A DNA stretch of 64,000 nucleotides from Patescibacteria group bacterium (GTDB taxonomy: Bacteria; Patescibacteriota; Patescibacteriia; Magasanikbacterales; GWA2-37-8), in the NCBI GenBank assembly GCA_004321885.1, contig SCQK01000007.1:32001-96000 (forward strand), written 5' to 3'. The notes under the pieces are model-generated. The model was not told the DNA's origin. It ran no database searches and was given only the letters and a program-made list of their open reading frames with translations. Shown one piece after another: positions 3,117-48,254 of the stretch (position 1 is its first letter; each line of letters opens with the position of its first letter). The translations under genes and the position numbers were made by a program.

Positions 3117-3122
3117 AACACA

Positions 3123-10118: not shown

Positions 10119-10163
<45 letters not shown>

Positions 10164-14962: not shown

Positions 14963-15016
14963 GACGGAATTTGAGAGCGTGACTATCTTATTACAAAGCC
15001 GCTTGTTTGTCAACTT

Positions 15017-18712: not shown

Positions 18713-18770
18713 AATCACCCTTGACATCCCGCGCCAAGCGTAATATAATGAAAAATTCTGATTGACTTTA

Positions 18771-18804
18771 CCCCCTCTTAATCTCCCCCTTATCAAGGGG
18801 GAGA
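18771..18804. repeat. GGGGAGGG-family palindromic element (intergenic, upstream of the DHH gene).
   Basis: ccccctcttaatctcccccttatcaagggggag. Confidence 0.6.
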
Positions 18805-18817
18805 CAAACGACAAACT

Positions 18818-26917: not shown

Positions 26918-27027
26918 ATTTCAATAAGTTAAATAAATACGCGTTCGCGAAAAGCGAACGGATATATTATACCACACTTTCCCGCGGCCTGCATGCAGGG
27001 TCGGATGACCCTGTGGATAAGTTTTAT

Positions 27028-27062
27028 CCCTCCCCTTGATAAGGGGAGGGTTGGGGAGGGGT
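27028..27062. repeat. GGGGAGGG-family palindromic element (intergenic).
   Basis: ccctccccttgataaggggagggttggggaggggt. Confidence 0.6.
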
Positions 27063-27064
27063 AA

Positions 27065-28363
27065 TCAATACCGGTAATGGCCGGGCTTATACGGCCCGTC
27101 CAGCGGCACGCCCAGATAATCGGCCTGCTCTTTCGTCATTTTAGTGAGTTTGACACCGATTTTTTCCAAATGCAAACGCGCCACTTCCTCGTCCATTTCC
27201 TTTGGCAGCATGTGCACGCCGATTTCATATTTTTTAGTCCAGAGTTCTATTTGCGCCAAAACCTGGTTGGAAAAAGAATTGCTCATCACAAAGCTGGGAT
27301 GGCCCGTGGCGCAACCCAAATTCACCAGCCGGCCTTCGGCCAATATATATATGGAATGACCTGGCCCGCCCGCCTTTGGCGGAAAATCATACCTGTCTAC
27401 CTGGGGTTTGATGTTGATTTTTTTCGCGTCCGAAGCGTTCAGTTCCGCCATTTGTATTTCATTATCAAAATGGCCGATGTTGCACACAATGGCCTGGTCT
27501 TTCATTTTTTTAATATGCTCCAGGGTGATGACATCGCGATTGCCCGTGGCCGTAACATAAATGTCGGCGCGGCCGAGCGTGTCTTCCACGGTCGCCACTT
27601 CATAACCCTCCATGGCCGCCTGCAAAGCGCAAATTGGGTCAATCTCGGTCACAATCACTCGGCACCCCTGCCCTCGCAAGGCCTGGGCGCTGCCCTTGCC
27701 CACTTCGCCGAAACCACACACCACCGCCACTTTACCGCCGATCATCACGTCAGTGGCGCGGTTGATGCCGTCTATCAAAGAATGACGACAGCCGTAAATA
27801 TTATCAAATTTGCTTTTAGTAACAGAGTCGTTGACATTAATAGCCGGGAAAAGCAACTTGCCTTGCTCAAAGCGCTGATACAAACGGTGCACGCCCGTGG
27901 TGGTTTCTTCAGACACGCCTTTTATTTCTTTCGCGAGTTCAGGGTGTTTTTCGTGCACAAGCAATGTCACATCGCCCCCATCATCTAAAAGCAAACTCGG
28001 CCCTTTGCCGCCGGTAAATTTCAACGTCTGCTCGGTGCACCACCAATATTCATCCTCGGTTTCACCTTTCCAGGCAAATACCGGCACGCCCGCCTCGGCC
28101 ATAGCCGCGGCCGCGTGGTCTTGGGTGGAAAAAATATTACAGCTGGCCCAGCGTACCTCGGCACCCAGCGCTCGTAGGGTTTCAATCAGCACAGCGGTTT
28201 GGATGGTCATGTGCAAAGAACCGGCAATGCGCGCGTTCGCGAGCGGCTTACTCGCCGAATATTTCTCGCGAATGGCCATCAGCCCGGGCATTTCTTTTTC
28301 CGCCATTTCAATTTCCTTTCTCCCCCACTCGGCCAACGAAATATCTTTTACTTTGTAATCGGA
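27065..28363 (-). CDS. ahcY: Adenosylhomocysteinase (S-adenosyl-L-homocysteine hydrolase).
   Basis: Diagnostic AhcY sequence throughout, including the NAD-binding [13 protein letters not shown] and the C-terminal ..PYKPGHYRY. Confidence 0.9.
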
Positions 28364-28374
28364 CATACGAAATT

Positions 28375-29316
28375 TTATTCTAATTTTAACTCCTCCCCAA
28401 ACGCTTTTTTGTAACGCTCGCAAAATTCTTTTTTGGTAAAATTATGCGCCTGGGTGCCGAAGGTTTCTATGGCGTAGCTGGCGGCCACGGCCCCCATCTG
28501 ACCGCACATTTTCCAGTTGTAGCCGCGCTCAAATCCGACTAAAAATCCGGCGCGATAAGCATCGCCGGCGCCGGTCGGGTCGTCAAACGACAACGGCGGG
28601 CAAGAACCTACTTTCACCTCCTCGCCTTCGGCTGTCTTGATGATAGACCCGCGCTCGCCCAAAGTGACAATCAGCACCTTGGCGTTTTTCAAAATCTCGT
28701 TCGCGTCCCAGCCCGTGCGCTCTTCCAATAATTTTATTTCATAGTCATTGCCAATCACGAAATGCGCCTGGCTGAGCATTTTTTGCAATTCTTCGCCGGT
28801 AAAGGCCGTGATTTGCTGACCCGGGTCAAACATGGCCTTGGCGCCGAAAGTGGCGCATTCGTGCATGTGCTTTTGCATGGCTTCTTTTTGCGTGGGCGAC
28901 ACGATGGCCAGCTCAAACTTTTCTTTCACCGCTTCCAGCGAATCCACGTTGGCCAGTGGGCCGTTGTAAAAAGCAGTAATCTGGTTGTCGTCGGCGTCAG
29001 TGGTGATATAGGCCGAAGCCGTGGATTGTTTTTTATCAATTTTAATATTGGCCGCGTCAATACCGTTTTTTTTCAAATAATCCAAATAATCACTACCGTC
29101 GGCGCCGACAGCCGACACCACCAACGGTTCCGCGCCGAGCAATTTCATGGTGTAAGCAATGTTACCGGCCGTGCCTCCCCAGCTACGTTCCAACCTATCC
29201 ACCACAAAACAAACATTCAAAATATGAATGTTGTCCGGCATGATGTGGTTCTTAAAGCTGTCCGGAAAATTCATGATGTTATCGTAAACCAACGACCCGG
29301 AAACGAGTATGGGCAT
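28375..29316 (-). CDS. PfkB-family carbohydrate/nucleoside kinase. Given the adjacency to ahcY, it is possibly an adenosine kinase.
   Basis: [13 protein letters not shown] PfkB signature 2. [10 protein letters not shown]-terminal motif. Confidence 0.7.
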
Positions 29317-34153: not shown

Positions 34154-34245
34154 GGAGAGGTGGCCGAGTTGGCTGAAGGCGGCAGGTTGCTAACCTGTTG
34201 TAGGGCCTTAAAATCCTACCGTGGGTTCAAATCCCACCCTCTCCG
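34154..34245 (+). tRNA. tRNA-Ser (anticodon GCT), with a long variable arm.
   Basis: Acceptor stem GGAGAGG/CCTCTCC, anticodon loop cagguTGCTAAccug and T-arm GGGTTCAAATCCC. It is 92 nt. Confidence 0.85.
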
Positions 34246-34365
34246 CTCAATGAGATGGAATTGAACGTTTGAGAACAGTGCTTGGAATGCGCGTTTATGC
34301 GCTCTTTCCTGCACTTTCAGCGTCACTGATTGAATAGAGACTGGGACTTCGAACCCACGAGGTGA

Positions 34366-34593
34366 TCAGGGCACTTCATCGAGGAATGGCACCTCTATCT
34401 GTCCACCGTCTGGGCTGATCGCGCCGACGCGCCACCCTTCACGCTTCCTTTTCAACATCCAACGATAGACCCGCACAGCGTCGTAGACGCCCTGTGTGAG
34501 CGGTTTTTCTCCGGAATGTGTGAGTTCTTCAGCCTCGTTCTGTTTGAGCCGAAGGTGAAGATCTATTGCCTTCTTGTCAGTCTTCATGGGCAA
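34366..34593 (-). CDS. Small hypothetical protein within the island.
   Basis: A 75 aa ORF in the high-GC context. Confidence 0.3.
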   Translation of the reverse strand: MPMKTDKKAIDLHLRLKQNEAEELTHSGEKPLTQGVYDAVRVYRWMLKRKREGWRVGAISPDGGQIEVPFLDEVP

Positions 34594-34784
34594 AGACTTC
34601 TCCTAGAGTTATGTAGATCTCTCGATCGTAGTTCCAAGAAGTACCGGAGTCAAGCATATTTGTCACACCGGTGCGCGATGTGCTCCCTTGTGGGGGAGGA
34701 AATGGAACGCGCATGTTCGAAAATGTTCTTGACACATCCAATGCGGTTCCGGTACGGTAATACAAACAACCAAACGGAGGAGTC

Positions 34785-35678
34785 ATGGTCGGCAAGGTCG
34801 CGATCTTCGGGGTGTTTATGGGAACGTTCGCCGCTGGTTGTGGCGAACCGCTCGGCGGGAGCGATGACCAGGACGTCGAACAGGTCGTGCTTCAATATCT
34901 CCGGGATCACGATCCGGGCATCACGCGAGGGTCGCCGGAGTACATGGTCTTCCTTAAGGACATCCTGTGGGGTTTGCACCCCGACCTCTTGAATCACAGT
35001 CGCGGGACGAAGATTGGCGAGTTCGCCGCGGCGTATATTAGCAATGCTGTAGCGCCGCTATTGGATGATGAACAAGCTCCGAGGCCGACCATCCAGTCAC
35101 AGACTTCCGCCCTCACCAGCGGCTTCAACCGCAACGCCGTGGTGAACTATGCATATGCTTGGGCGAGCAACGGCGGCAAGAAAAGAAACGGTGCTTACGT
35201 CAGTTTCGACAATGACTGCACGAATTTCGCCAGTCAGGCGATCAAGGCCGGTGGAGTCCCGGCAATTGGTAGCGGCTCGTGCGGCTATGAGGAGACGACC
35301 TGGGAGTGGTACTCCCAGTTCTCCTTGGCTTGGTGGTGTCTCAAGAAGTGGGCCGTTTCCACCACGTGGGTCAGGGTCTCTGAGTTTTACCAGTACCACG
35401 TGCAGAACAAGCGTAACGCATCGACTGGCCTCTACTACCTTGGCAACCTGAACTCCTTGCGGTCTGCAGCTCGTCCGGGCGACATCATTCAGCTGCAGTT
35501 GGCTTCCAGCGGCACCCTGTTTCACTCGATGGTCGTGACCAAGAAGGACAGCACCGGCGAGATCTATTGCACCTATCACACCGGTCCCAACGGCTACGAT
35601 GTCGTTGACAAGCCGCTGGCCTCCATCGCAGCCAACTACGGGAACACGAGCTACTATCGTCTCAACAGGTTTGACTAG
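34785..35678 (+). CDS. Putative amidase-domain lipoprotein (Amidase_6-like cell-wall hydrolase).
   Basis: Lipobox FAAGCG. NAVVNYAYAWASNG...YVSFDNDCTNFASQAIKAGG is typical of the putative amidase domain. Confidence 0.55.
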   Translation: MVGKVAIFGVFMGTFAAGCGEPLGGSDDQDVEQVVLQYLRDHDPGITRGSPEYMVFLKDILWGLHPDLLNHSRGTKIGEFAAAYISNAVAPLLDDEQAPRPTIQSQTSALTSGFNRNAVVNYAYAWASNGGKKRNGAYVSFDNDCTNFASQAIKAGGVPAIGSGSCGYEETTWEWYSQFSLAWWCLKKWAVSTTWVRVSEFYQYHVQNKRNASTGLYYLGNLNSLRSAARPGDIIQLQLASSGTLFHSMVVTKKDSTGEIYCTYHTGPNGYDVVDKPLASIAANYGNTSYYRLNRFD

Positions 35679-35754
35679 CAAAGCGGCAACAACGCCCGCC
35701 CCGAAGCCCTATTCCACCTGCCCGTCGTCATTGTTTGTAAGTCGCACATATTCT

Positions 35755-36231
35755 ATGACATTTCGTCGTCGCATCGGTATCGTCTTCGTCTGCATCCTGC
35801 TCGGGTTCGTTGTTCTGTTCGTGGCAGGACCCGGTTTCATGGTGGTCGACAACAGGGACATCCGAGCCGCCGATGATGTCTCAGCGGAGGACATGGCCGC
35901 TTGGCTGGGAGATGCTGGCTGGCAGGCGGATGCTACAAAACATTACTATCTCATCAACGTATCGGGAGTTGTGCATTCTCTCTCGCCGCGATCGCTCAAA
36001 TACCTCGAGGCGCGCATCACAAATACCAAGGCGAATCTGCGCGTGTACGCCGTCACACCGTTATTGGGTTTTGTCGTTGAACCGTTTCGACTCGGAACGG
36101 TGAGCCTCCTGTTTCTGATAGAGACACCGGAAGAGCGAGACCTAGCGGACATCATGCGGCAGTTCAGCTTCTGTGTACGTCAAAGTGATCAGAGCGGGCT
36201 ATGTATGCCCGTGTTGTCGGGGACACGTTGA
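35755..36231 (+). CDS. Membrane hypothetical protein within the island.
   Basis: N-terminal TM IGIVFVCILLGFVVLFVAG. Confidence 0.35.
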   Translation: MTFRRRIGIVFVCILLGFVVLFVAGPGFMVVDNRDIRAADDVSAEDMAAWLGDAGWQADATKHYYLINVSGVVHSLSPRSLKYLEARITNTKANLRVYAVTPLLGFVVEPFRLGTVSLLFLIETPEERDLADIMRQFSFCVRQSDQSGLCMPVLSGTR

Positions 36232-37672
36232 ACTGGCCGGCTTCGGAGCGGAGCGACTGATCATACCCCGGCGCCAACGTGATCTGCGGCGATCCGGTGC
36301 TGAGCTCCACCTTGGCGACCACCGCCTCGATCACTGAGCGCCGTGTCACCGGGTCGTCGCTGGCCAGCTTGGCGTTCATGGATTCCACCACCTCAAGCAT
36401 GGTGGCTCCTCGCTCGTCATCCAACAGGTTCTCCGGTCTGTTCACCAAGAACCACTCGGTTGCCCGGATCTGCTGGAGGACTGCGCCGCGCTCCTGATCG
36501 TACTGGCTGTCGTCGACCAGGCCCCTGGCGTACTGACGAGCCAGATCCTTCAGCTTCTCGTCGAGCTCGCGCCGTTGCTGCCTGAGCAGGCGAATCCGCT
36601 CGCCCTGCTCCTTGCTTCTGGTCCGGCGTGCCTGGCGCTCCGCCCGGCGCAGGACAGGGACCATGGTGGCAGGCAAGTCCATTGCCAGCAGGTTGGCGCA
36701 GATCTCATTGTCAAGGTCGGCCGCTCGGGTGCAGAAGCTACAACCCTGCTGGTGGCAACGGTAGTAGTCGTGGATTCTGCCAGACTTCTTGATGTGTCGC
36801 TCGCCGGTCAGCGTCGCGGCGCACCTCGGGCATCTGACCTTGCCGGCCAGGACGAAGACCAGATGCTTCCGGCCGCCTCGCACACTGCCTCCGGCTTTTT
36901 GCCGAAAGACCTCCTGGCACCGGTCGAAGAGCTCTTTGGAAACCAAAGGTGGATGACTGCCCGGGTAGCTCCTGCCCCTGCTCATCATCACGCCGATGTA
37001 GAACGGATTCTTGAGCAGCCGGCACCATTGGTTAACCGGTACTTTCTTGCCGTGGACACCCACCAGGCCGCTGCTGTAGATCGTGTCCGCCAGCTGGCTG
37101 GCTGTCAGCTTTCCCGTAGCCCACAGTTCAAACGCTTCTCTCACCCTCGTTGCCCTCGCCGGATCCAGCACCACACGATCATTTTGCATCAAATAGCCCA
37201 GACAAGGGCGGCCGAACCATTTGCCCCGAAGAAGGCGCTCTTCGAGGCCCTTGCGAACCTCGGCCGAGAGGTTCGCGCTGTAGAACTCTGCTTGTGCTGC
37301 CATAATGTTTTCCAGAAACTCACCCATAGGGGTCGCTTCAAAGGATTCCACCACCGAAAACAGCTTTACTCCATATTCCTTGAGCTGGCCCTTCAAGATG
37401 AGATGATTAAAGACGTTGCGGGACAGCCGGTCGATCTTGTGGACGACGAGGCCACTGATGGACTTGTCCCGTTTGACGTGGCCGATGGCGGCCATGAGCC
37501 CCGGACGCCCGCGCAACTGCCTGCCCGAGCTGACGTCCTGGTACCTGGCGGCCACGATCAAACCACGTTCCTCGGCGTATCGCTGCATCAGCCGAAACTG
37601 AGCCGCGATGGAAAGCTCGCGTTCCGCCTGCCGAGTGGTGGAGACGCGAGCGTACAAAATGACTGCTGACAT
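36164..37672 (-). CDS. Large serine recombinase (resolvase catalytic domain, then a recombinase domain, a zinc ribbon and a coiled coil).
   Basis: N-terminal ILYARVSTTRQ catalytic-serine motif, DRLSRN, and a Cys cluster CPRC..C..C. It is 502 aa. Confidence 0.85.
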   Translation of the reverse strand: MSAVILYARVSTTRQAERELSIAAQFRLMQRYAEERGLIVAARYQDVSSGRQLRGRPGLMAAIGHVKRDKSISGLVVHKIDRLSRNVFNHLILKGQLKEYGVKLFSVVESFEATPMGEFLENIMAAQAEFYSANLSAEVRKGLEERLLRGKWFGRPCLGYLMQNDRVVLDPARATRVREAFELWATGKLTASQLADTIYSSGLVGVHGKKVPVNQWCRLLKNPFYIGVMMSRGRSYPGSHPPLVSKELFDRCQEVFRQKAGGSVRGGRKHLVFVLAGKVRCPRCAATLTGERHIKKSGRIHDYYRCHQQGCSFCTRAADLDNEICANLLAMDLPATMVPVLRRAERQARRTRSKEQGERIRLLRQQRRELDEKLKDLARQYARGLVDDSQYDQERGAVLQQIRATEWFLVNRPENLLDDERGATMLEVVESMNAKLASDDPVTRRSVIEAVVAKVELSTGSPQITLAPGYDQSLRSEAGQFNVSPTTRAYIARSDHFDVHRS

Positions 37673-37847
37673 AGGAGAGGGGTTAAGAGTAACTCCACCT
37701 ATGGTCGCAGCGCCCGAGCTGCTTTACAACCAAAAGAGAAACCACTATAATTGAAGTGTTTTTATGTTACTACATGCGGATAACACGCTGGGAGTCGGAC
37801 AACCGGAAGGAAACAACCGGGTACGAAGGACGTCCCAGAATCCCCGC

Positions 37848-39455
37848 ATGCGCGCAGTTGCAAAAATTTTTCTTCTTCTGGCCGGCTGGCTTATCGTCGT
37901 TTCCATTGTTTCCAATTCGTTTGACAACGACCTGGGCTGGCATTTGCGCTTTGGCCAAGACGCCCTAAGCGGCGATTTTCAGTACACCGACAGTTATACC
38001 TGGGGCTTTGCCGGGCGCGAGTGGGTAAACCACGAATGGGGGGCCGATATTTTATTTTGGATTATTTACAGCCGCGTCGGCTACTTCGCCCTGGCGCTTC
38101 TCATCGGCACGGTAATCTGGGCGGCATTTGTGCTGGCGCCTCTTATTTTTGCGCGTTTCAGTTTAGGCGCTCTCGCGATTTCGCTGCTCATGGCCCTGGC
38201 CGCGGGCTTTACTTTTGTCACGCGCGTCTCCATGGCGGCGCCGCTGTTTTTTGTTTTGCTCTGGTTTTCGCTGGAAAGAAAAAAATATTTTTTCCTGTGG
38301 CCGATTTTATTCTGGGCGTGGTCTTTTCTGCATGGTAGTTGGATACTGGGATTTATTTTAATAAACATTTATTTGGTTGGAGAAATAATTCCCTCCACTA
38401 TTAGAGCCTGCCCTGAACTTGTTTCAGGGGGAGGGACAAAAGGTGGAGTTGGCAAGAAGCTCTGCTGGCAAATCATTTCCGCGGCCGCGATTCTTCTCAA
38501 TCCGTACGGCATAAAACTCTGGCGCGAGGTGCTCTCCTATTTTATATACAGCGACTACAAGCGGCTGATTATTGAATGGCTGCCAAGCTACAGTTACCCC
38601 ATTCGCTGGTGGCCCATAATTATCGCGGGAGCGGCCGGCGTTTTGCTTTACCTGGGGTGGAAAAACAAAAAAGCGTCTTTGACCCACGTATTGTTATTTT
38701 TGGCCATATTTTTAGCCGCCATGCAATACAAGCGCAACAATATTTTGCTGACGCTCGTTTGCGCGCCGATTTTCGCAATAGCTTTGGAAGAAACAAAGAA
38801 GAAACTACTCTCAATTGCCATTCCGAACCCGAAGGGTGAGGAATCCCTTCGCCTTACGAGTAAGTTTAAGGGATTCCTCGCTCCGCTCGGAATGACAACG
38901 GCGATTGTCCTCTTCGCCGTCTCAGCCGTTTATTACCTTCCCCGCCTGCGGGCGCAAAATGACGTCTGGCAGGACAAAAATTTTTTGACCCGGCACGGCT
39001 TTCCGGTCAAAGCCGTTGATTTTGTAAAAAAACTACCGGCCGGAGCGAAAATTTTCAACGAATTCGGCTGGGGCGGTTTTTTTATCTGGCAAACGCCGCA
39101 AGTAAAAATGTATTTTGACGGACGGGGCGCGGCCACCTGGCGCGACGCCAATGGCGAATTCATGCTTAAAAAATATCTGCGCTACCTTGGCGAAAAAAAA
39201 CAGTTGCCCGAATTAAGCAAAACTCCGGCTGAATATATTTTGCTGGAAAAAAACAGGCTGGCCCTGCCGCCGCCCGGCTGGAGCGACAAACTGTTTTTCA
39301 AAAAAGAAAACTTGGCAAAAATAATGGAGCGCAAGCCGCCGTTGCTTGAAACCGACCTGACGAAAAGCAGTGATTGGAAACTGATTTACAGCGACGAGAT
39401 GACGAACATTTGGAAAAGAACCGCGGACATGAATTCCGGCTCAAGCCCGGAATGA
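37848..39455 (+). CDS. Polytopic membrane protein, possibly a GT-C-fold glycosyltransferase. It contains two in-frame palindromic insertions.
   Basis: More than 10 predicted TM segments. The elements at 38395-38445 (..RACPELVSGGGTKGGVG..) and 38866-38905 (..PKGEESLRLTSKFKGF..) are translated in frame. Confidence 0.5.
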   Translation: MRAVAKIFLLLAGWLIVVSIVSNSFDNDLGWHLRFGQDALSGDFQYTDSYTWGFAGREWVNHEWGADILFWIIYSRVGYFALALLIGTVIWAAFVLAPLIFARFSLGALAISLLMALAAGFTFVTRVSMAAPLFFVLLWFSLERKKYFFLWPILFWAWSFLHGSWILGFILINIYLVGEIIPSTIRACPELVSGGGTKGGVGKKLCWQIISAAAILLNPYGIKLWREVLSYFIYSDYKRLIIEWLPSYSYPIRWWPIIIAGAAGVLLYLGWKNKKASLTHVLLFLAIFLAAMQYKRNNILLTLVCAPIFAIALEETKKKLLSIAIPNPKGEESLRLTSKFKGFLAPLGMTTAIVLFAVSAVYYLPRLRAQNDVWQDKNFLTRHGFPVKAVDFVKKLPAGAKIFNEFGWGGFFIWQTPQVKMYFDGRGAATWRDANGEFMLKKYLRYLGEKKQLPELSKTPAEYILLEKNRLALPPPGWSDKLFFKKENLAKIMERKPPLLETDLTKSSDWKLIYSDEMTNIWKRTADMNSGSSPE

Positions 39456-39464
39456 CAATCGCGG

Positions 39465-40262
39465 CTAACCCCTGGCCAAAGTGAGCCAGTAAATTTTTTG
39501 CGCGCCGGCCGCTTTCAGCACGCGCGCGCATTCCTGCATGGTGGCGCCGGTGGTGTAGACATCATCAACCAGCAGAACGTATGCGGGCGCCGGAGCCGGT
39601 CCCTTCCACGCGAACGCGCCGGCCACGTTTTGCGTCCTTTCCTCTTTGCTTAACCTGGCTTGATGAGGAGTGTAGCGGGTGCGAACTAATACCCCCTCCT
39701 CTATCCTCCCCCTAATAGGGGGAGGGTTCTGTGTGAGTCCCTCCCCTTTTAGAGCCTGCCCTGAACTTGTTTCAGGGGGAGGGATACAGGGAGGGGTATT
39801 CAAAGAGTCCAAAAAAATTTTTGCCAACACTTTCGCCTGGTTAAAGCCGCGCTCGCGTTCGCGGCGCGGGTGCAGGGGAACTGGAAGAACTGACCAGCAT
39901 ATTGGCTCCACAGCCCCGACTAAGTCGGGGACTATGGAGCCAGCCACGCTAATTATCGTTCCGACCGAGCAGAGCGAACGGAGGAACCCCTTTTTCTCAC
40001 TTATTATTTTTTCAAAAACATTTTTAATGTCTTTGGCAAAGCCGTATTTGAATTGTTTTATCAGCCTGCCCACGGGCCCGTTTTCTTCATAAACAAAAAA
40101 AGACGCACCTCGGTCCAGGTGCGCGTCCGCGGGCCAAAGCGCGCACTCATTTTGGTGTTTGGCCCGGCAAAGCTTGCACCACCACTCCCCTTCCACGCCG
40201 CAATCCACGCACGAGACCGGGAAAAGAATATCTTTGAACCAGCGCGCGGAGGCGGCCAGCAT
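39465..40262 (-). CDS. comF: ComF-family protein (double zinc ribbon plus phosphoribosyltransferase domain), with two in-frame palindromic-element insertions.
   Basis: N-terminal CVDCG..C..C and C-terminal PRTase motif VLLVDDVYTTGATM. The elements at 39700-39805 and 39904-39944 are translated. Confidence 0.75.
   Translation of the reverse strand: MLAASARWFKDILFPVSCVDCGVEGEWWCKLCRAKHQNECALWPADAHLDRGASFFVYEENGPVGRLIKQFKYGFAKDIKNVFEKIISEKKGFLRSLCSVGTIISVAGSIVPDLVGAVEPICWSVLPVPLHPRRERERGFNQAKVLAKIFLDSLNTPPCIPPPETSSGQALKGEGLTQNPPPIRGRIEEGVLVRTRYTPHQARLSKEERTQNVAGAFAWKGPAPAPAYVLLVDDVYTTGATMQECARVLKAAGAQKIYWLTLARG
39904..39944. repeat. Copy of the 43 bp CCCCGACTAAGTCGGGG element inside comF.
   Basis: Identical to 20823-20864. 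Confidence 0.8.
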
Positions 40263-40263
40263 A

Positions 40264-40866
40264 CTATTGCCAGCTCACGGCGCCGACCAGCCACTCATTG
40301 CCGATTTTAAGCAAATTTACTTTATAGGAAACCTGTTTGGAAGACGTGGCGCCCGCTTTTTCCTCTACGCGCGTGGCCTGCAAAGCCACCCCGGCGCTGG
40401 CGCCGTCCCAGTCGCTAAGCGACGAAGCGATGACCTTGGTTGTAACGCCCAAAAATTCCACGGCCGGTTTTGTATTTTTAAGAGGCGCGCTGATTTTTTG
40501 CCACAAAACATCAGTTACCAAATTTTCCAGCTCGCGAATATTGTCATAATTATTGTCGGTGGAATATGTGCCATAGCGCTCCACGAAAATTTTGGCTATC
40601 TGCCTCACCCCGTTTTTTTGCGCTTCCAGCGACGTCGGTTTTTTCACCACCAGCGGCGTGGTGGTGGCCAAGGGATTTTGCACTCCCGCCGGCGTGCCGT
40701 CCGTGTAAGCCGCGGGTAAAACATTTTCAGTTTTGTTTTCTTCGGCCGGCGGCGCTGTCTCCGATTTTTTCTTTCCGGCATACGTTAAAAAAACGCTGAC
40801 ACCGATAATTATGATAACTATCGCTCCGACGAAAATGAAAATTCTGGCGCGTAGAGGCATATACAA
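40264..40866 (-). CDS. Membrane-anchored hypothetical protein.
   Basis: N-terminal TM IFIFVGAIVIIIIGVSVFL. Confidence 0.45.
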   Translation of the reverse strand: MYMPLRARIFIFVGAIVIIIIGVSVFLTYAGKKKSETAPPAEENKTENVLPAAYTDGTPAGVQNPLATTTPLVVKKPTSLEAQKNGVRQIAKIFVERYGTYSTDNNYDNIRELENLVTDVLWQKISAPLKNTKPAVEFLGVTTKVIASSLSDWDGASAGVALQATRVEEKAGATSSKQVSYKVNLLKIGNEWLVGAVSWQ

Positions 40867-40875
40867 AATTTATTA

Positions 40876-42747
40876 TCACTGATTTTCTTTTTCAAATTCT
40901 TTTTTGGCCGCTTCAATGTCCAGCAACTGCTGGGGATTGGTGGTCACAATCTGGTCTTCGGTGTAGGAGGCCACCACTTTAATGGCCGCGTGCTTGTTGC
41001 CGGCGAAAAAAATCCCCTCACCCACAGCGCTTTCCAAAAGCAGATATTTTTCGCCCTCGGTTAAAATAAACACTTTTTGCACCAAATCAATGGCCGCCGG
41101 CGACTGACGCAACAAAAGTTGCAGGGCCGAGTTCGTCACAATCGCCTGACCGTATTGCGAGCGCAAAAAATCATTCACATCCTGCGTGATGGTGGTAACG
41201 CCCAAAAAATATTTGCGGCAGCGCTTGACCAGGGCGAAAATAAAGCGAGCGCTGTCCTCGTGCTGCATCAGCCACCAGGCCTCGTCTATGGCCAGAATCC
41301 TTTTCTTGCGCTCCGAACGCACAACGTTCCAAATATAGTTGACGATGGCGTAAATGGCCAGGGGGCGCAACTCGTCTTCCAAATCGCGCACCGAAAAAAC
41401 CACCAGCTGATTTTTCACGTCCACGTTGGTGGGCGAATTAAACAGACCGCTAAACGTGCCCTCGGTAAATTTTTTCAATTTCAAGACCAGCTCGTTTGAC
41501 CCTTCCATGCCCTCCAAAATTTCCTCCAAATCCTGCATAATGGGCGGCGTCACCTTGGTCAAATCCGCGTCCGGCGTGATATCTTTTTTGGCGTAAGTTT
41601 CTATGAGCGCGCGGTCAATGATGGAATCCTGCTCGGTGGTAAGCCCGCCCAGCATGATGCGCAACAGCCCCTTCACGGTAATGACCGCCCCGCGGATAAT
41701 ATCATCCACGGAAATTTCCTGACCCACGGGCCGCGGCAAATCAAAGGGGTTCACCTTGCTTTCCGAAGATAAAGAAATATTTATATAGGTGCCGCCCACG
41801 GCATCGCACAAATGCTTGTATTCCATTTCCGGGTCAATCACGATAATGTCCGTGCCCATCATCATGGTGCGCAAAATTTCCAGCTTGATGGCATAACTCT
41901 TGCCGGCGCCGGAAGTGGCGAACACCACCATATTGGCGTTTTGCAAAGAAAAGCGGTCAAACAAAATCAGGCTATTGTTGTGTCGGTTGATGCCGTACAA
42001 GATACCGTCATCCGAGGTGAGCTCGGCGGAAATAAACGGAAAACTGGCCGCGATGGGGCTGGAGTTCATGTTGAAAGCGACCGCGATTTCATCGTTGCAT
42101 AAGGGCAGGGTGGAATTAAAACCCTGCTCGGACTGATAAAAAACCTTGCGCGAATAAATGAGCTTGCCGCCAAAAACATTTTCAATGTCTTCGCAGGTCT
42201 GGTCCAGCTCTTCTTTGGTTTTGGCGTAAACCGTAACATAAAACGCAAACTGAAAAAAATGCTCGGTGCCCTGGGTGAGATTGTCGCGCAGTTCTTCTAT
42301 GTCGCGCAGGGCGGTTTCGCGAATCGGGTCGCGCGGCGCGCCTTTTTCCGCGTCGGCGTTTATCTGCGCTTCCAGGGCGCCGACTTTATTGCGCAACTGC
42401 TTCAAAATTATAGCTGACTTGACCGGATAAAAAAACATGCCGATGTCCATGGTCACGGACATATTAAGAATGGGCGAACTCCAGCCCACCGAAATATAGC
42501 GCGGATAGGTGATGACAAAAATGGTGCGGCAAAAAATATCGCCCAGCTTCACGAAGCCGGTCTCCACGTTGAAAGCCGAGGGCGCGATGATGTCCTTAAT
42601 GGAAACCGTGCCCTCGCGATAAGCCCGCTCTTCGGCCAAAATCATGGTCTCGGCCGCGGCTTTCTTTTTTACCGCCTCTTCTTCTTTGCGCAGGCGGCTC
42701 TCGTCGGGCTGGCCGGTTGGTTTTACGATTTTTGGTGCAAAAGCCAT
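40876..42747 (-). CDS. virB4: VirB4/TrbE-family type IV secretion ATPase.
   Basis: Walker A VVFATSGAGKSY, with DUF87-like architecture. Confidence 0.75.
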   Translation of the reverse strand: MAFAPKIVKPTGQPDESRLRKEEEAVKKKAAAETMILAEERAYREGTVSIKDIIAPSAFNVETGFVKLGDIFCRTIFVITYPRYISVGWSSPILNMSVTMDIGMFFYPVKSAIILKQLRNKVGALEAQINADAEKGAPRDPIRETALRDIEELRDNLTQGTEHFFQFAFYVTVYAKTKEELDQTCEDIENVFGGKLIYSRKVFYQSEQGFNSTLPLCNDEIAVAFNMNSSPIAASFPFISAELTSDDGILYGINRHNNSLILFDRFSLQNANMVVFATSGAGKSYAIKLEILRTMMMGTDIIVIDPEMEYKHLCDAVGGTYINISLSSESKVNPFDLPRPVGQEISVDDIIRGAVITVKGLLRIMLGGLTTEQDSIIDRALIETYAKKDITPDADLTKVTPPIMQDLEEILEGMEGSNELVLKLKKFTEGTFSGLFNSPTNVDVKNQLVVFSVRDLEDELRPLAIYAIVNYIWNVVRSERKKRILAIDEAWWLMQHEDSARFIFALVKRCRKYFLGVTTITQDVNDFLRSQYGQAIVTNSALQLLLRQSPAAIDLVQKVFILTEGEKYLLLESAVGEGIFFAGNKHAAIKVVASYTEDQIVTTNPQQLLDIEAAKKEFEKENQ

Positions 42748-42752
42748 AGGTA

Positions 42753-43433
42753 TTATTCTACCTGCATCTGATTCGCCGGCGCCAGGTATTGGCTAAACGC
42801 CACGTCCGGATTATACGTTGAATAAAATAATTCTATCAGGGATTGCGTGTCCAGGCGCGCCACTTCCAGGTTCATTGAAGCCAAACCCCCTTCCACCTGG
42901 CGCACGCGCGCGTCTAAATCTTTTTTTCTCTGCAAAAACCGGTCTTCTTTGAGAGTGATGATAGTAGCCGGATTAATCGTCTCCATCGCGCGCGGCCAAA
43001 AGCCGCGTTTTTTGTTAGAAAGCGGGTCGTAGGGCACAATCACGAAAAACTGTTTGCTCATGATTTTGCCGAGCGACACCAGCTCGGTGATAAACGAGCG
43101 GTAATCGGCCGTCTGCGCGCGTAAAAGCTCGTTGCTTTGCTCGCGCTCTTTGGTTAGTAATTTTTCCAGATAGGGCTTGATATATAACTGACGCGATTGC
43201 ACCACCACCTGCAGGGGAAAATCCAGGGAGTTCAAAAAAGAAACATACGACGACACCAGCGCGTTTTGCTCTTCCTCGCTTTTGAGCGCGAAATTAACGC
43301 TGGAAACCATCAGCAGGGCGCGCAGGGTGCCGTCTTTCATGACAACAGTGTCTGATTTGATTTCAGAAAAAGGCAGATGATTCTGCGCGGACGGAATAGC
43401 TCTTTTTTTGGCCAGCGTTTTTTTATTTTGCAT
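42753..43433 (-). CDS. Hypothetical protein immediately upstream of VirB4 (possibly a split VirB4 N-terminal domain or a T4SS accessory protein).
   Basis: A 226 aa ORF tightly coupled to virB4. Confidence 0.4.
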   Translation of the reverse strand: MQNKKTLAKKRAIPSAQNHLPFSEIKSDTVVMKDGTLRALLMVSSVNFALKSEEEQNALVSSYVSFLNSLDFPLQVVVQSRQLYIKPYLEKLLTKEREQSNELLRAQTADYRSFITELVSLGKIMSKQFFVIVPYDPLSNKKRGFWPRAMETINPATIITLKEDRFLQRKKDLDARVRQVEGGLASMNLEVARLDTQSLIELFYSTYNPDVAFSQYLAPANQMQVE

Positions 43434-43441
43434 ATGTTTTT

Positions 43442-43476
43442 CCCTCCCCTTGCGAAGGGGAGGGTTAGGGAGGGGT
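43442..43476. repeat. GGGGAGGG-family palindromic element (intergenic).
   Basis: ccctccccttgcgaaggggagggttagggagggg. Confidence 0.6.
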
Positions 43477-43477
43477 C

Positions 43478-43906
43478 TTACTCGGGTTTGTAATATCCCC
43501 CGGTATTCACAATCAAAGACAAATCCCTGATTCTGTTATACGACAATCGCGGCATGGCCTTGGCCGCTTCTTCTATTTTTTTCTCCGCGTTCGCTTCGCG
43601 CAATTTTTTCAAATCGGCGTTGGAATATTTTTTCTGCCAGATGCGCAGGCTGGGCCGGCGCGCGGTGCCGGCGATATTTAGGATAAAATAATGAAACGGC
43701 TGGCCGTTGATTTTGACAAAAGCGAAGGTCAGCGACAAGCCGCCGAAAAGCGCGGTGAGGAAAATAAACAAAGCCATGTCGGCCAATTTGAAAGACAAAA
43801 ATATCAACAGACTGCCTGCGAGCAAAATGATAAACTGCCTGGTGGTGATGGGCCCAAAAATTTTGTCTTCCACGTCTATGAATTGCGGCACCGTGAATTG
43901 ATCCAT
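43478..43906 (-). CDS. PrgI/VirB3-like small membrane protein of conjugative type IV secretion systems.
   Basis: MDQFTVPQFIDVEDKIFGPITTRQFIILLAG followed by two TM helices resembles PrgI-family proteins. Confidence 0.55.
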   Translation of the reverse strand: MDQFTVPQFIDVEDKIFGPITTRQFIILLAGSLLIFLSFKLADMALFIFLTALFGGLSLTFAFVKINGQPFHYFILNIAGTARRPSLRIWQKKYSNADLKKLREANAEKKIEEAAKAMPRLSYNRIRDLSLIVNTGGYYKPE

Positions 43907-43907
43907 A

Positions 43908-45038
43908 CTATAATTCTTTCTCCATCGCCACTATCGCTTTTATTTCTTCTATCTTTATCCCGCCTTTTTCCGTCGCTGTCTGCGCCAGGGTTTTTCTGTC
44001 GGCCAACGCGCCGCACACCGCGTCCATGTATTCCAAATAAAGAGGGCTCTGTTTCCAGGCGGCCTGCGCGTCCATATATAATAGGTAGGATTCGTCGCGC
44101 AGGTTGATGAATTTTTGTTTCAGGCGCTGGCCCGCCTCGGCGCAGTTTTGCGCCAAACGGCGAAAATCCGTCAGACTAATATATTTTACCTCATCTATGG
44201 GTCCCATTTCAACAGGCGGAGCGGAAATATCCCGCATGCTCTGTTTTACCGGCGCGCTTCCTAACTTGAACGACGAGGATTGTGTAGCCCCCTCCCCTCT
44301 TAGGGAAACCGTCATCTTCCCCTCCCCTTGATAAGGGGAGGGCTCGCCACCACACCAAAATTTTTGGTGTGGTGGCGAGGGAGGGGCAGTCGCAACCGGC
44401 TTCTCTTCAGGCGCCAAAAGCGCGTGCAAAAGCTCGTTGGCTTTTTTCTTGCTCTCGGGCACAGTTGGTCCCCCCCCTCCTTTAGAAGGAGGGGGCAAGG
44501 GGGTGGTCTTGACCTTTTCTGAATGTTCAAACGGGTTAAACGGAGTTGCTGTCGCCGGCAACAATACCTCTTCGCACGCTCCCGCCGCTTTCTCGGCCTG
44601 ATTGGCCGTAAAACCCATGCCACCGTCTTTTATGGAACGCAATAAAATATTTTTCGTTTCTTCGGGCGAGCGCACGTCTTTGAGGCGCAACTGAATAATA
44701 CTGCGCAAGCGATTGATAAAGTTGGGCGGCACTGGAAAATTTATTTTTTTGAGCGCCTGGTCCACCTGGCTTAGGCGCGGCTCGCTCAATTTCGGCGCGT
44801 CGCCCTTGGCCGGCGCCGGCTCTTCCAAAGGCGACCGAAAATCATTATTCGCTTTCTTCGTTCCCATCATCGGCGCCGTGGGATACGGCGGTCGTTTTGG
44901 CGCTACTTTCACTCCCTCCCCTTTTAGGGGAGGGGCAGGGAGTGGGGTATTGTGCGCCGCTTGTCTTACCTGCGACAAAGGCATGCGCACAAAACTGCCG
45001 TCGGCCTTTTTTACCAAAATTGTTGGTTCGTTTGGCAT
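43908..45038 (-). CDS. Proline-rich hypothetical protein carrying at least four in-frame palindromic-element insertions.
   Basis: Translated elements: PLPAPPLKGEGVKV, PLPPPSKGGGGPT and SPPHQKFWCGGEPSPYQGEG. The ORF extends to 45101 through a further element. Confidence 0.45.
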   Translation of the reverse strand: MPNEPTILVKKADGSFVRMPLSQVRQAAHNTPLPAPPLKGEGVKVAPKRPPYPTAPMMGTKKANNDFRSPLEEPAPAKGDAPKLSEPRLSQVDQALKKINFPVPPNFINRLRSIIQLRLKDVRSPEETKNILLRSIKDGGMGFTANQAEKAAGACEEVLLPATATPFNPFEHSEKVKTTPLPPPSKGGGGPTVPESKKKANELLHALLAPEEKPVATAPPSPPHQKFWCGGEPSPYQGEGKMTVSLRGEGATQSSSFKLGSAPVKQSMRDISAPPVEMGPIDEVKYISLTDFRRLAQNCAEAGQRLKQKFINLRDESYLLYMDAQAAWKQSPLYLEYMDAVCGALADRKTLAQTATEKGGIKIEEIKAIVAMEKEL

Positions 45039-45093
45039 ATTATTTACCCCTGCCTCCCTCCCCCTTAAATAAAGGGGGGGACAGGAGGGGGTA

Positions 45094-46425
45094 TTATTCA
45101 CTAACTAATTTTAAGTCTTTCGCCACCTGCGCGGCCAAGGATTCCACGCTGTCAAATTTTTTGGGCAGGCGCAAATAACGTTCGGTGCGCGCTTCTATTT
45201 TTTTTCCATACAAATCGCCCGCAAAATTCAAAACATGAACTTCCAGGCAGTCTTTTTTTGTTAAAGAATTATATCCATAATATAGCAAGCCGGAATACCC
45301 CTTCCCCTGCCCCTCCCCTAAAAGGGGAGGGTGGCTATCGGTGGTTCCTCCCCTTTTTAGGGGGAGGACAAAGGAGGGGGTATTCGCAATGAAAGCGACG
45401 GAGCACGTATACAATCCCCTGGGCAAATTTTTGGCCAGCGCCACGTCCAAGTTGGCCGTGTGAATCCCTACTTTATCCCCTTGTCCATAGCCGGGCAAAA
45501 CCGCGCCGGCCACCACGCGCGAACGGTGTAAAAACACAATTCTGGTTACGGCCGCCGCCAGCGCCGCCGCTCCCAAAATTTGCGTGGCCGATAACGCGTT
45601 GCCATTTAAATAATAATCCAAAATAATGGCGGACACGGGCCAGGACAGCTCGCACAAAGTCGCCACCGAAGCGGTGATTTTTTTCAGGCCGAAATAGTAC
45701 AAAAACATGGCCGCGGCTCCGGATGTAAAAACTATAATGATTAAAGTCGTCCACTGGGCCGCGCCCACCGACGGCAGAGAGGAAAAATAGCGCGCCGCCG
45801 GAATCGCCATAATCAAAACCGTGAGCCCAAAGCGCAAAGCCGCCAGCAGGCCATAGCTGATATTTTTTAGGGAATATTTTCCAAAGGTGGTGGCCGAACC
45901 CCAGGCAAACGCGGCCAGCATGGAAAAACCGGCGGCAATGGGAACAGCCGACATCGCGCTAGAAACCGCGAACGGATTTTTGAAAGTAACAAAATATCCC
46001 GCGACCAGCGCGAGCGGGGCGTAAAAATAAAACGAGCGCGGAAATCGCTCGCGTAAAAATATGGCGGCCAAGATAATCGCGAAAATCGGCTGAAATTTTT
46101 GCAAAAGAATCACTACGGAAATATCTTTGAAGCCCGTGGCAAACAAGGCCTTGGTGATAAAAATCGTGCCCAAAGCCCCGCCAAACAAGGCCACCCAAAA
46201 AATTGCGACCCACTCTTTGCGTTTTATCAGTTTTAACTGGGCGCGGTAAACAACCAAAAACGGCAACAAGGCGACAAAACCGAGCAGGTGCTCCAAAAAC
46301 ACCAGCAAGGCCGGTTGCAAGGAATACAAACGGGGTCGCAAAAAAGTGCCGTCCAAACTCCACAGCAGAGCGGCCAGCGCCACGGCCATTGCCCCGATAA
46401 TCACGCTATTTTTTTTCATAATCAT
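45094..46425 (-). CDS. Putative fusion of an EamA/DMT-family 10-TM transporter with a C-terminal riboflavin kinase domain. The kinase domain carries an in-frame palindromic insertion.
   Basis: About 300 aa of paired EamA-like TM repeats, then GQGDKVGIHTANL...GLYTCSV..EVHVLNFAGDLYGKKIEARTERYLR (RFK motifs). The element at 45298-45385 encodes ..TTDSHPPLLGEGQGKGYSGL... Confidence 0.55.
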   Translation of the reverse strand: MIMKKNSVIIGAMAVALAALLWSLDGTFLRPRLYSLQPALLVFLEHLLGFVALLPFLVVYRAQLKLIKRKEWVAIFWVALFGGALGTIFITKALFATGFKDISVVILLQKFQPIFAIILAAIFLRERFPRSFYFYAPLALVAGYFVTFKNPFAVSSAMSAVPIAAGFSMLAAFAWGSATTFGKYSLKNISYGLLAALRFGLTVLIMAIPAARYFSSLPSVGAAQWTTLIIIVFTSGAAAMFLYYFGLKKITASVATLCELSWPVSAIILDYYLNGNALSATQILGAAALAAAVTRIVFLHRSRVVAGAVLPGYGQGDKVGIHTANLDVALAKNLPRGLYTCSVAFIANTPSFVLPLKRGGTTDSHPPLLGEGQGKGYSGLLYYGYNSLTKKDCLEVHVLNFAGDLYGKKIEARTERYLRLPKKFDSVESLAAQVAKDLKLVSE

Positions 46426-46481
46426 TTGTCATGCTGAACCACCAGCTGGCGGTTGTTTCAGCATCTTCGCTTTCTTCGTCA

Positions 46482-46593
46482 CCCCACTGTCATTCCGAGC
46501 GGAGCGAGGAATCCCTTATACTACGTTAACAGTTTCTATATCCCCCTTCTTCAAATGCAACACAATCGCCAGCGCCTCGCACAGCCACGAGGC
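46482..46593. repeat. 112 bp direct repeat (copy 1). It includes a MITE-like hairpin and a duplicated 3' gene tail.
   Basis: About 90 percent identical to 47237-47348. On the minus strand it encodes ..EALAIVLHLKKGDIETVNVV with a stop, as a remnant. Confidence 0.75.
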
Positions 46594-46723: not shown

Positions 46724-47218
46724 TTACGGGGTGCTTTTTTTATACTCAACTTTATTCCTCAAATCACTAACAAAACTAATTTTGCCGCCGGCCACTTTCC
46801 GCAATAAGTACGAGCAACTGGACGGCGCGGGCGCGATCAAGTGGCAAAACTTATTTTGTTTTCGCAAATAGTCAACTAAACAATGAAAATCACCATCGCC
46901 GCTGACAATTACGGCCTGATCATAATTCTGATATTCTATCATCGTGTGTAAAACCAATTCGGCGTCACAATTCCCTTTTACTTCACCGTCTTTCAATATT
47001 AGAGTTGGTTTAAATATCAAAATGTAACCAACCTCCTGAAGAAATTTATACAACTCCTCATTGCCAAATAAAAAACCAATGAACATAAACGCCTTCGCGA
47101 CGCTATATTTGTCTTTCAAATACCTGCGAAAACGAAAATAATCCAGCTTCCAACCAATGCGCTGCATACTGAAATATAGATTCTGACTGTCTATAAACGC
47201 GAAATTGTTTTCTTTCAT
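46724..47218 (-). CDS. NYN-domain (PIN-like, LabA-type) protein.
   Basis: AFIDSQNLY, DAELVLHTM and VIVSGDGDFHCLV motifs. Confidence 0.65.
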   Translation of the reverse strand: MKENNFAFIDSQNLYFSMQRIGWKLDYFRFRRYLKDKYSVAKAFMFIGFLFGNEELYKFLQEVGYILIFKPTLILKDGEVKGNCDAELVLHTMIEYQNYDQAVIVSGDGDFHCLVDYLRKQNKFCHLIAPAPSSCSYLLRKVAGGKISFVSDLRNKVEYKKSTP

Positions 47219-47236
47219 ACTTCGTTTCCCTCCCCG

Positions 47237-47348
47237 CCCCACTGTCATTCTGAGCGGAGCGAGGAATCCCTTACACTACGTTAACAGTTTCTATATCCCC
47301 TTTTTTCAAATGCAACACTATCGCCAGCGCCTCGCGCAGCCAAGAGGC
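47237..47348. repeat. 112 bp direct repeat (copy 2), overlapping the authentic 3' end of the gene 47271-48254.
   Basis: See copy 1. Confidence 0.75.
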
Positions 47349-48254
47349 ATAAGCCTCGCGCTCCTCTTGTCCGCGATAAATATTCTGCAAGAATTTTTCC
47401 GCCTCCAAAATTGCCGTGTCCTGATTGTAGCCACGGCCGGAAAAATCTTTGAGCAAAACCGATAATTTTCTGCTTTCATCTCCGGCATCGCTCGTCGGCA
47501 CGCTCTCGTTGCTTTGCTCCAACGATTGTATGATGTTCCGGCTCATGGCGTCAAAATCCGCGTCGCTCTTGCCGCCCAAAAATTCCCCCAGATAAAATCG
47601 CGCCGGCACGCCGGTCACGATGGCGCTATAAAAATAATTCTGCAATAAAAATTGTCTTTCATTCGCGCCAAACTGGCCAAACATCTTCCACACCGCCTGC
47701 AAGAGCATGGAAAAAATAAAAGCGTCATCCCAAAAATATTGTTTTTTAATATCTTCTGATTTCGAAACAGCGGGTAGTGTGCGCACAAACATTTCGCCGA
47801 TTTCTTTATCCGCGCCATTTCGCAAAAAATCCCCGAGCGTCGCCACAAAAACCAAATCATTATAAAATCCGCCTTCGCCTTTCAAAATAATTTTCAATTC
47901 TTCTTTTTCGTATGGCTTGACGCCAGCGCCCAAACCCAGAGCCGCTGAAATAAACGATAGCTGTAGCGCCAATGCGCCGGCGATTTCGCTATCGTCTGGC
48001 TTATCCATAAATTCGGCGACCAATTCGGAATCCAAAAACAAAATTATTTCTTTTTCAATCACGTCCATTGCTCCGGATAACTCTTCCTTAGTCGCTCGCG
48101 CGCCAATTTGCGAAGCGTAATCAAACATTTTCTCGTTTGCGCCCTTGGCAATCAAATCCGCTTTGGCTTTTTCCAATTCCAAAAACGCCTCGCGAACATC
48201 CTGCCACGAACACCTTCTAAACTCGCATACTTTGCGCCTGCCGAGGGTGAACAT
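47271..48254 (-). CDS. Hypothetical protein.
   Basis: A 327 aa ORF with no recognisable domain. Confidence 0.45.
   Translation of the reverse strand: MFTLGRRKVCEFRRCSWQDVREAFLELEKAKADLIAKGANEKMFDYASQIGARATKEELSGAMDVIEKEIILFLDSELVAEFMDKPDDSEIAGALALQLSFISAALGLGAGVKPYEKEELKIILKGEGGFYNDLVFVATLGDFLRNGADKEIGEMFVRTLPAVSKSEDIKKQYFWDDAFIFSMLLQAVWKMFGQFGANERQFLLQNYFYSAIVTGVPARFYLGEFLGGKSDADFDAMSRNIIQSLEQSNESVPTSDAGDESRKLSVLLKDFSGRGYNQDTAILEAEKFLQNIYRGQEEREAYASWLREALAIVLHLKKGDIETVNVV

Follow-up and report, generated by a model that had tools for sequence, protein, structure and literature searches.

The window analysed here is a stretch of 64,000 nucleotides from a member of the Patescibacteria (Magasanikbacterales), corresponding to positions 32,001 to 96,000 of contig SCQK01000007.1 in GenBank assembly GCA_004321885.1. 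On its reverse strand, at 45094-46425, it carries a gene in which an EamA-type carrier, which falls in the superfamily of drug/metabolite transporters (DMT), is fused to a riboflavin kinase (RFK) domain. The open reading frame (ORF) begins with ATG, has 443 codons and contains zero internal stops. The identical public protein is TAN33536.1, which is recorded as 'hypothetical protein EPN28_01850 [Patescibacteria group bacterium]' and is encoded on a contig of 214.5 kb. The parts of the gene are as follows.

45094-46425, reverse strand: whole fusion ORF, 443 aa plus stop codon; public protein TAN33536.1
45529-46425, reverse strand: EamA/DMT transporter module, residues 1-299 (Pfam, AlphaFold2 helices, Foldseek)
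45517-45528, reverse strand: junction HRSR, residues 300-303 (AlphaFold2 secondary structure, alignment of 120 homologues)
45103-45525, reverse strand: riboflavin kinase domain (PF01687), residues 301-441 (Pfam, phmmer, Foldseek)
45451-45462, reverse strand: HTAN, residues 322-325, counterpart of the PTAN motif (conservation in 120 homologues)
45241-45243, reverse strand: Glu395 in LEVH, equivalent to the catalytic residue E268 in FADS of C. ammoniagenes (alignment)

A first-pass annotation of this DNA had described a single 443-codon frame that joins about 300 aa of an EamA-like transporter with ten transmembrane (TM) segments to a C-terminal riboflavin kinase domain across an uninterrupted junction, and each of these elements was borne out. 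A Pfam search of the protein found EamA (PF00892) in two stretches with an E value of 1.1e-27 and Flavokinase (PF01687) at residues 301-441 with an E value of 2.1e-19 (70.4 bits; gathering score 19.6). Both families are therefore significant, and the lack of a Flavokinase hit, which the annotation had named as grounds for giving up the fusion, was not what the search returned. The Flavokinase match is near-complete, covering profile positions 3-120 of 124, and the peptides quoted in the annotation, GDKVGIHTANL and EVHVLNFAGDLYGKKIEARTERYLR, are both found in the protein. TM10 and the first strand of the kinase are about four residues apart, and there is no stop and no change of frame between the domains. 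EamA and Flavokinase were the only Pfam families in the protein; FMN adenylyltransferase (FMNAT, PF06574; FMN, flavin mononucleotide) was not found. The RibF models of NCBIfam reach the protein only through its C-terminal kinase part, far below their cut-offs, which indicates that the fusion has no FMNAT half, and the carrier half has only a sub-threshold NCBIfam match, to TIGR00950. NCBI calls the fusion 'EamA family transporter', 'DMT permease' or 'hypothetical protein' and UniRef calls it 'riboflavin kinase', and each name conceals the other half of the protein. A promoter and terminator scan around the gene gave nothing exceeding shuffled expectation.

The kinase half is a genuine Flavokinase family member. 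In a phmmer search against the PDB, the C-terminal 148 aa matched RibF of T. maritima (1mrz, E 1.6e-8) and human RFK (1q9s, E 2.7e-8). In this family the ATP phosphates and Mg2+ are held by the PTAN motif, and in C. ammoniagenes FADS the catalytic Glu is E268 (PMC9299109). Conservation was judged in the 120 best matches listed, which are clusters at 90% identity drawn from NCBI, JGI, ENA and Logan assemblies. T323, A324, N325, E395, H397, R419 and F424 are invariant in 120/120 of these homologues, and the Gly-rich flap and the LR.PKKF segment are likewise kept. The first position of the PTAN motif is R, K, P or H in the family and H in the fusion protein. The pattern of conserved residues is that of a kinase that looks catalytically competent. 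Among the 120 homologues, the kinase has a mean pairwise identity of 66% and the carrier one of 76%, and both halves are therefore under purifying selection.

The carrier half, with its two five-TM repeats, belongs genuinely to the DMT/EamA superfamily. It is unusually conserved (the 76% given above), with many invariant polar and aromatic residues. An AlphaFold2 model built with a 27-sequence alignment had a mean predicted local distance difference test score (pLDDT) of 79.9 and a predicted TM-score (pTM) of 0.74, and consisted of ten long helices followed by a beta-barrel and a C-terminal helix. The helices run from H4-33 to H280-299; the last residue of TM10 is 299, and the kinase begins its first strand at 304. 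The best Foldseek match of the carrier part in the PDB was the choline importer LicB (7paf, E 1.4e-6, TMt 0.76, 18% sequence identity), and other matches with the DMT fold were YddG (5i20, TMt 0.71), TPT (5y78) and CST (6i1r). The kinase part matched human RFK (1q9s, E 6.7e-6, TMt 0.67) as well as 5a88, 1nb0 and 1n06. In the model, therefore, the six-stranded beta-barrel fold of RFK and the DMT fold are both predicted to be present. Lysine and arginine residues cluster at the N-terminus, in the even-numbered loops and in the segment after TM10 (about 16 inside versus 5 outside, counted by eye); by segment the counts are 2, 5, 3, 2 and 2 plus the tail on the predicted cytoplasmic side versus 2, 1, 1, 1 and 0 outside. 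This charge bias predicts an N-in/C-in topology, and in LicB both termini are cytoplasmic (PMC8890701). On the basis of the predicted topology, the kinase is predicted to be cytoplasmic and to be held tightly under the carrier.

The first-pass annotation had named a search for the same fusion in related genomes as a check, and the two-domain architecture was found in 120/120 of the homologues listed (PF00892 plus PF01687; 58-68% identity, typically 415 aa, independent assemblies). The junction is free of stops throughout the alignment, and the 4-residue linker is kept across the family. Chance is ruled out as an origin of the fusion, given that every one of these clusters contains the two-domain ORF. 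A second survey was a pattern scan of GTDB with one genome per species, and it returned 40 loci. A fused ORF, or a contig-truncated piece of one that extends into the kinase domain, was present in 34 of them; three (L036, L037 and L038) are split gene pairs, and another three (L027, L032 and L039) are too incomplete or ambiguous to classify. Informative record titles among the 40 loci all belong to Patescibacteria, namely Magasanikbacteria, Nomurabacteria, Paceibacterota and Kerfeldbacteria. Twelve of the 40 have generic third-party annotation (TPA) titles ('uncultured Gammaproteobacteria' or 'uncultured Saccharibacteria') and show the same synteny as the named loci. The fusion is conserved across Patescibacteria.

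The two domains are also linked in other ways. L036, L037 and L038 have an unfused EamA gene with a separate Flavokinase gene of 121-122 aa (E 2.6e-29) on the same strand, 15-35 nt upstream. This EamA protein is an orthologue of the carrier, 46% identical to the carrier of the fusion (E 1e-72). With only 24% identity to the fused domain, the kinase represents another RFK clade, and RFK precedes EamA, the reverse of the order in the fusion. In L045, the gene 4 nt behind a distant EamA gene (27% identity over 124 aa) encodes P0130, a fused-clade RFK (40% identity). The EamA-RFK linkage is thus seen in three arrangements, with two clades of RFK and two subfamilies of EamA among them. Kinases of the fused clade also occur in other contexts. 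P0122, P0124, P0129 and P0130 are soluble proteins of 121-129 aa, and P0172, a metagenomic protein of 553 aa, combines Wzy_C (O-antigen-ligase-like) with Flavokinase and is a second membrane-protein fusion of the same clade. In L044 (326-1543 and 4001-4366), a stand-alone kinase of the fused clade follows AdoHcyase and PfkB genes in a slot that is occupied by the EamA fusion in five other species. Reading much into the short 'membrane-anchored' RFKs (P0126-P0132) was rejected: at least P0121 and P0123, and probably P0127, are fragments of fusion proteins. At the L045 locus (1630-4369, Logan SRR22387830), the genes pdxS, pdxT, EamA and Flavokinase form an apparent operon, so that vitamin B6 synthesis genes stand beside the EamA/RFK pair.

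The neighbours of the fusion vary among the related loci and are mostly housekeeping genes (tRNA synthetases, PfkB, AdoHcyase), and a conserved flavin operon around it was therefore rejected. In L005 (658-1245), L008 (9410-9991) and L011 (3773-4468), a gene of the nitroreductase family lies directly upstream on the same strand, with spacing to the fusion that ranges from a 1-nt overlap to a 9-nt gap. The nitroreductase family is FMN-dependent, and these three loci might represent an operon of an FMN producer and an FMN consumer.

One other flavin gene was identified in the window.

51-677, reverse strand: riboflavin synthase RibE (two Lum_binding repeats, E 1.8e-45)

The first-pass annotation had noted the presence of RibE in the window. 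The gene is real and is unlinked to the fusion, from which 44 kb separate it. Four relatives have a conserved mini-operon of Flavokinase, RibE and RibH (L042 7581-9042, L043 7664-9182, L046 5216-7045 and L047 5653-7176). The stand-alone RFK that precedes RibE in these relatives is missing upstream of RibE in the window, where a 528-aa HATPase-type protein occupies the slot, and no RFK-like sequence other than the fused domain is present within the 64 kb. RibH would fall outside the window. RibA, RibB and RibD were not found within 6-8 kb on either side of the mini-operons, which suggests that these operons may serve the salvage of late riboflavin precursors. E. coli RibA, RibB, RibD, the FMNAT half of RibF and TrxB had no tblastn match in the window or in 43 loci, a sample of about 700 kb that consists of loci and not of whole genomes. 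The mini-operons of L042, L043, L046 and L047 are embedded among many paralogous 'PEP-utilizers mobile domain' proteins.

The fusion bears on a gap in flavin metabolism within the Candidate Phyla Radiation (CPR). In Parcubacteria, no riboflavin synthesis genes, no ribK, ribL or ribF, no riboflavin transporter and no FMN riboswitch were found, and the flavin adenine dinucleotide (FAD) enzymes MurB and TrxB are retained (Nelson & Stegen 2015, PMC4508563). The fusion is an obvious candidate for part of this gap, and may be the 'missing' riboflavin kinase and transporter of the Patescibacteria/CPR. Full-text literature searches found no description of an EamA-flavokinase fusion; it is visible in databases and has not been interpreted so far.

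Several known systems resemble one half of the fusion or its logic. RibN is a DMT/EamA-type protein, and PnuC is paired with NadR, a carrier with a separate cytoplasmic kinase. The kinase half shares with monofunctional RFK and the RFK module of RibF (1q9s, 1nb0, 1mrz, 5a88) the beta-barrel, the Gly-rich flap, the xTAN motif, the Glu in LEVH and the C-terminal helix. Unlike these proteins, the fusion lacks FMNAT (PF06574), is welded at the N-terminus of its kinase to a 10-TM carrier, has R, K or H at the first PTAN position and, in this genome, has an insertion of about 27 aa that is predicted to be disordered. It is not a RibF because the FMNAT domain was looked for and is absent. The carrier half is similar to LicB, its best structural match, which also has 10 TM segments, cytoplasmic termini (predicted for the fusion) and a genetically associated kinase for its substrate. 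LicB is a DMT importer of choline, and the imported choline is phosphorylated by LicA, the kinase of the same lic operon (PMC8890701). In that system, however, the kinase is separate, has a protein-kinase-like fold and acts on choline, and the fusion and LicB are 18% identical. The combination of a carrier with phosphorylation is also like that of the RibM/PnuX and PnuC facilitators. RibM mediates energy-independent facilitated diffusion of riboflavin, and RibC of B. subtilis turns intracellular riboflavin almost quantitatively into FMN and FAD (PMC3239331). Unlike the fusion, these facilitators have the Pnu fold instead of the DMT fold, work with a separate soluble kinase and are often under FMN riboswitch control. 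RibN is a single-component riboflavin importer that has been reported only in alpha- and gamma-Proteobacteria, often with an FMN riboswitch (PMC4418817); the fusion differs in carrying a kinase, and no FMN riboswitch (RF00050) was found in the window or the related loci scanned. A survey in 2015 described nine families of bacterial riboflavin transporters, none placed in CPR and none fused to a kinase (PMC4418817). Kinship of the carrier with ImpX was rejected, as ImpX is related to the SLC52 transporter RFT2 and not to EamA (PMC4418817).

Our data indicate that the fusion is probably a flavin uptake system, most probably for riboflavin, in which the carrier and a trapping kinase are combined in one polypeptide. 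The 10-TM DMT/EamA carrier would move the vitamin across the membrane, and the kinase, attached to the cytoplasmic end of TM10 by a link of about four residues, would phosphorylate the emerging substrate to FMN with ATP. Phosphorylation on emergence would thereby make uptake irreversible and concentrative, as we propose, and would give a fermentative Patescibacterium with a reduced genome an ATP-driven means of accumulation. The fusion would also supply the riboflavin kinase activity that is reported missing from Parcubacteria genomes. A coupling of uptake to FMN trapping had been put forward in the first-pass annotation. The conserved fusion, the EamA-RFK linkages, the invariant catalytic residues and the predicted cytoplasmic position of the kinase lend it comparative support; from them we infer which substrate is carried, in which direction it moves and that the modules are coupled. 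A more far-reaching version is possible and is offered tentatively. Riboflavin might be handed over directly from the DMT cavity to the tethered kinase and be released only as FMN, a 'vectorial phosphorylation' outside the phosphotransferase system (PTS) that is energised by ATP and not by an ion gradient, and the protein might be both the long-sought transporter and the sole riboflavin kinase in large parts of Patescibacteria.

If the uptake reading is true, the fusion represents a new family of riboflavin transporters beyond the nine listed in 2015, and a rare natural case of a secondary-carrier fold covalently joined to the enzyme that traps its substrate. Flavin cofactors are universal, and the fusion, by offering a kinase and a plausible carrier, makes the flavin puzzle of Parcubacteria directly testable. 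It is also relevant to vitamin scavenging by ultra-small symbionts with weak membrane energetics and to the design of media for CPR cultivation.

Several points weigh against a riboflavin uptake system. Many EamA proteins are exporters. RibE is present, which shows that the organism is no mere scavenger of riboflavin; the vitamin may also be produced internally, at least from late precursors. FMN adenylyltransferase was not found in the approximately 700 kb of sampled CPR DNA, which comprises loci and not whole genomes, Rfam did not find the FMN riboswitch RF00050 in the window or in seven related loci, and no flavin gene stands consistently beside the fusion in the related loci compared. The presence of the kinase alone in the syntenic slot of L044 means that the kinase can be kept without the carrier. 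The low identity (24%) of the L036-L038 kinase also means that the RFK-EamA pairs and the fusion do not simply go back to one ancestral event.

The rival that survives best, which we regard as rather unlikely, is that the fused domain is the housekeeping riboflavin kinase and is merely anchored to the membrane by an EamA protein that moves an unrelated solute, which would make the fusion mechanistically meaningless. The housekeeping neighbours (tRNA synthetases, PfkB, AdoHcyase) fit this explanation, as does the lone kinase of L044. The kinase clade includes the soluble proteins of 121-129 aa (P0122, P0124, P0129, P0130) and is joined in P0172 to an unrelated Wzy_C membrane protein, and RibE implies an internal source of riboflavin that also needs a kinase. 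However, three different EamA-RFK arrangements are hard to explain without a shared substrate. The conservation of the carrier (76%) is as expected for one specific substrate, and a linker of 4 residues has been maintained across the family.

Another explanation, which is unlikely in our view, retains the link between the two halves and changes the substrate or the direction. The carrier could import 6,7-dimethyl-8-ribityllumazine or 5-amino-6-ribitylaminouracil, which would feed RibH and RibE, or a deazaflavin, or it could export FMN made at the membrane. The RFK-RibE-RibH mini-operon is consistent with precursor import, and RibA, RibB and RibD were not seen within 6-8 kb of it or in the sampled 700 kb, although this absence rests on loci and not on whole genomes. 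Export would suit the many EamA members that are exporters, and YddG is among the best structural matches. The canonical catalytic and flavin-site motifs of Flavokinase argue against a different substrate, and a cytoplasmic, ATP-dependent kinase on the carrier fits trapping after import. Extracytosolic flavinylation is under-represented in CPR (PMC8238504), which weakens the case for FMN export.

A role of the kinase domain as a flavin sensor without catalytic activity, which would gate or regulate the transporter, is highly improbable. Recruitment of RFK domains for regulation has a precedent in archaeal RbkR (PMC5397151), and R, K or H replaces P at the first PTAN position in the fused family. 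The Thr, the Asn and the catalytic Glu are nevertheless invariant in 120/120 homologues, together with the Gly-rich flap and LR.PKKF, a pattern typical of active enzymes. That the fusion is an artefact of assembly, frameshift or gene calling, with adjacent genes joined, has a negligible probability: split EamA/RFK pairs exist elsewhere and repeat elements in this genome could confuse assembly, but the ORF is continuous in 120/120 clusters listed (NCBI, JGI, ENA, Logan) and in 34 GTDB species representatives, and the conserved, stop-free junction therefore excludes an artefact for practical purposes.

The kinase domain of this genome also contains a palindromic insertion, which belongs to a repeat family with further copies in the window.

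45292-45386, no strand assigned: in-frame composite palindromic insertion of about 93 nt, encoding residues ~346-376
45045-45097, no strand assigned: repeat copy at the 3' end of the fusion gene, overlapping the stop codon (45094-45096), extending downstream and lying inside the listed ORF 43908-45101
15016-15065, 18770-18807, 27027-27065, 39686-39725, 39770-39801 and 43441-43481: copies of the ~39-nt repeat, first set
44316-44342, 44473-44511, 44913-44953, 45045-45097, 45292-45331 and 45346-45386: copies of the ~39-nt repeat, second set

That the kinase tolerates an in-frame palindromic insertion had been stated in the first-pass annotation and proved correct: the ORF is intact, and about 27 extra residues, IANTPSFVLPLKRGGTTDSHPPLLGEG, aligned after residue 345, are lacking in at least 90% of the 120 homologues; KKP59254.1 is one homologue free of the insertion. 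The insertion consists of two units of about 39 nt placed head to head with AATAC...GTATT ends, and each unit has the structure CCCTCCCC-loop-GGGGAGGG-N3-GGGGAGGGG-TATT. It lies in the hairpin between the kinase strands 337-345 and 377-386, distant from the PTAN motif, the flaps and the catalytic Glu. Residues 349-374 have pLDDT values below 50 in the AlphaFold2 model, and the inserted residues are predicted to be disordered. At the insertion site, a remnant of half the length, HPLLGEG, is present in P0002, the closest homologue, and P0012 and P0073 have other insertions there, so that the hairpin is a hot-spot that tolerates insertions. Within this surface hairpin the palindromic insertion is a passenger and plays no part in the mechanism.

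The ~39-nt repeat family is lineage-expanded, with about 12 copies in the 64-kb window versus 2 in 636 kb of other CPR loci, and 7 of the copies in the window fall within 43.4-45.4 kb. The unit contains a C-tract/G-tract hairpin followed by a further G-tract, and the resulting four G-runs could form a G-quadruplex. At least 3 copies are in frame in ORF 43908-45101 and 2 in ORF 39465-40262, where they yield peptides of the 'PL.GEG' type; others are intergenic, just past stop codons. Rickettsia palindromic elements (RPEs) are short palindromic repeats that have spread in the genome and occur in frame in genes at permissive surface sites. The insertion is similar to RPEs in being short, multi-copy, palindromic, in frame and located at a permissive surface site. 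It differs from them in its unrelated sequence, its much shorter unit (~39 nt), its richness in G- and C-tracts with four G-runs, and its host, a CPR genome.

Several features in the surroundings of the gene were also observed. A 129-nt direct repeat with 90% identity between its copies (46465-46593 and 47220-47348) flanks an NYN-domain gene at 46724-47248. The gene at 47271-48254 has its true 3' end in the upstream copy, and the other copy, just upstream of the fusion gene, is a pseudo-3'-end produced by duplication; the NYN gene resembles an insertion framed by the duplication. A 35-nt element, CCCCACTGTCATTCCGAGCGGAGCGAGGAATCCC, occurs in the window at 46488-46522, 47243-47277 and 38863-38897 and in a Magasanikbacteria locus (L029, 12792-12827), and may be a hairpin of the repetitive extragenic palindromic (REP) or terminator type. 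The region 34154-45101, directly downstream of the fusion gene and on the same strand, contains a tRNA (34154-34245), a large serine recombinase (36164-37672) and a set resembling a type IV secretion system (T4SS), and may be an integrated or conjugative-type module. The T4SS-like set is composed of the following.

40876-42747: VirB4/TraG-type ATPase
43478-43906: PrgI-like protein
Further members: unknown proteins

The AdoHcyase-PfkB pair, which flanks the fusion in other species, is located at 27065-29316 in the window, 16 kb from the fusion. A 16S rRNA gene lies within 8528-12098 and spans 2861 nt for a 1533-position model; it holds a LAGLIDADG_2 ORF at 10336-11097. A group I intron at 8528-9297, with a LAGLIDADG_3 ORF at 8552-9223, is located at or just beyond the 3' end of the 16S rRNA gene. 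A 16S rRNA gene stretched in this way, with LAGLIDADG ORFs and a group I intron, is typical of CPR bacteria.

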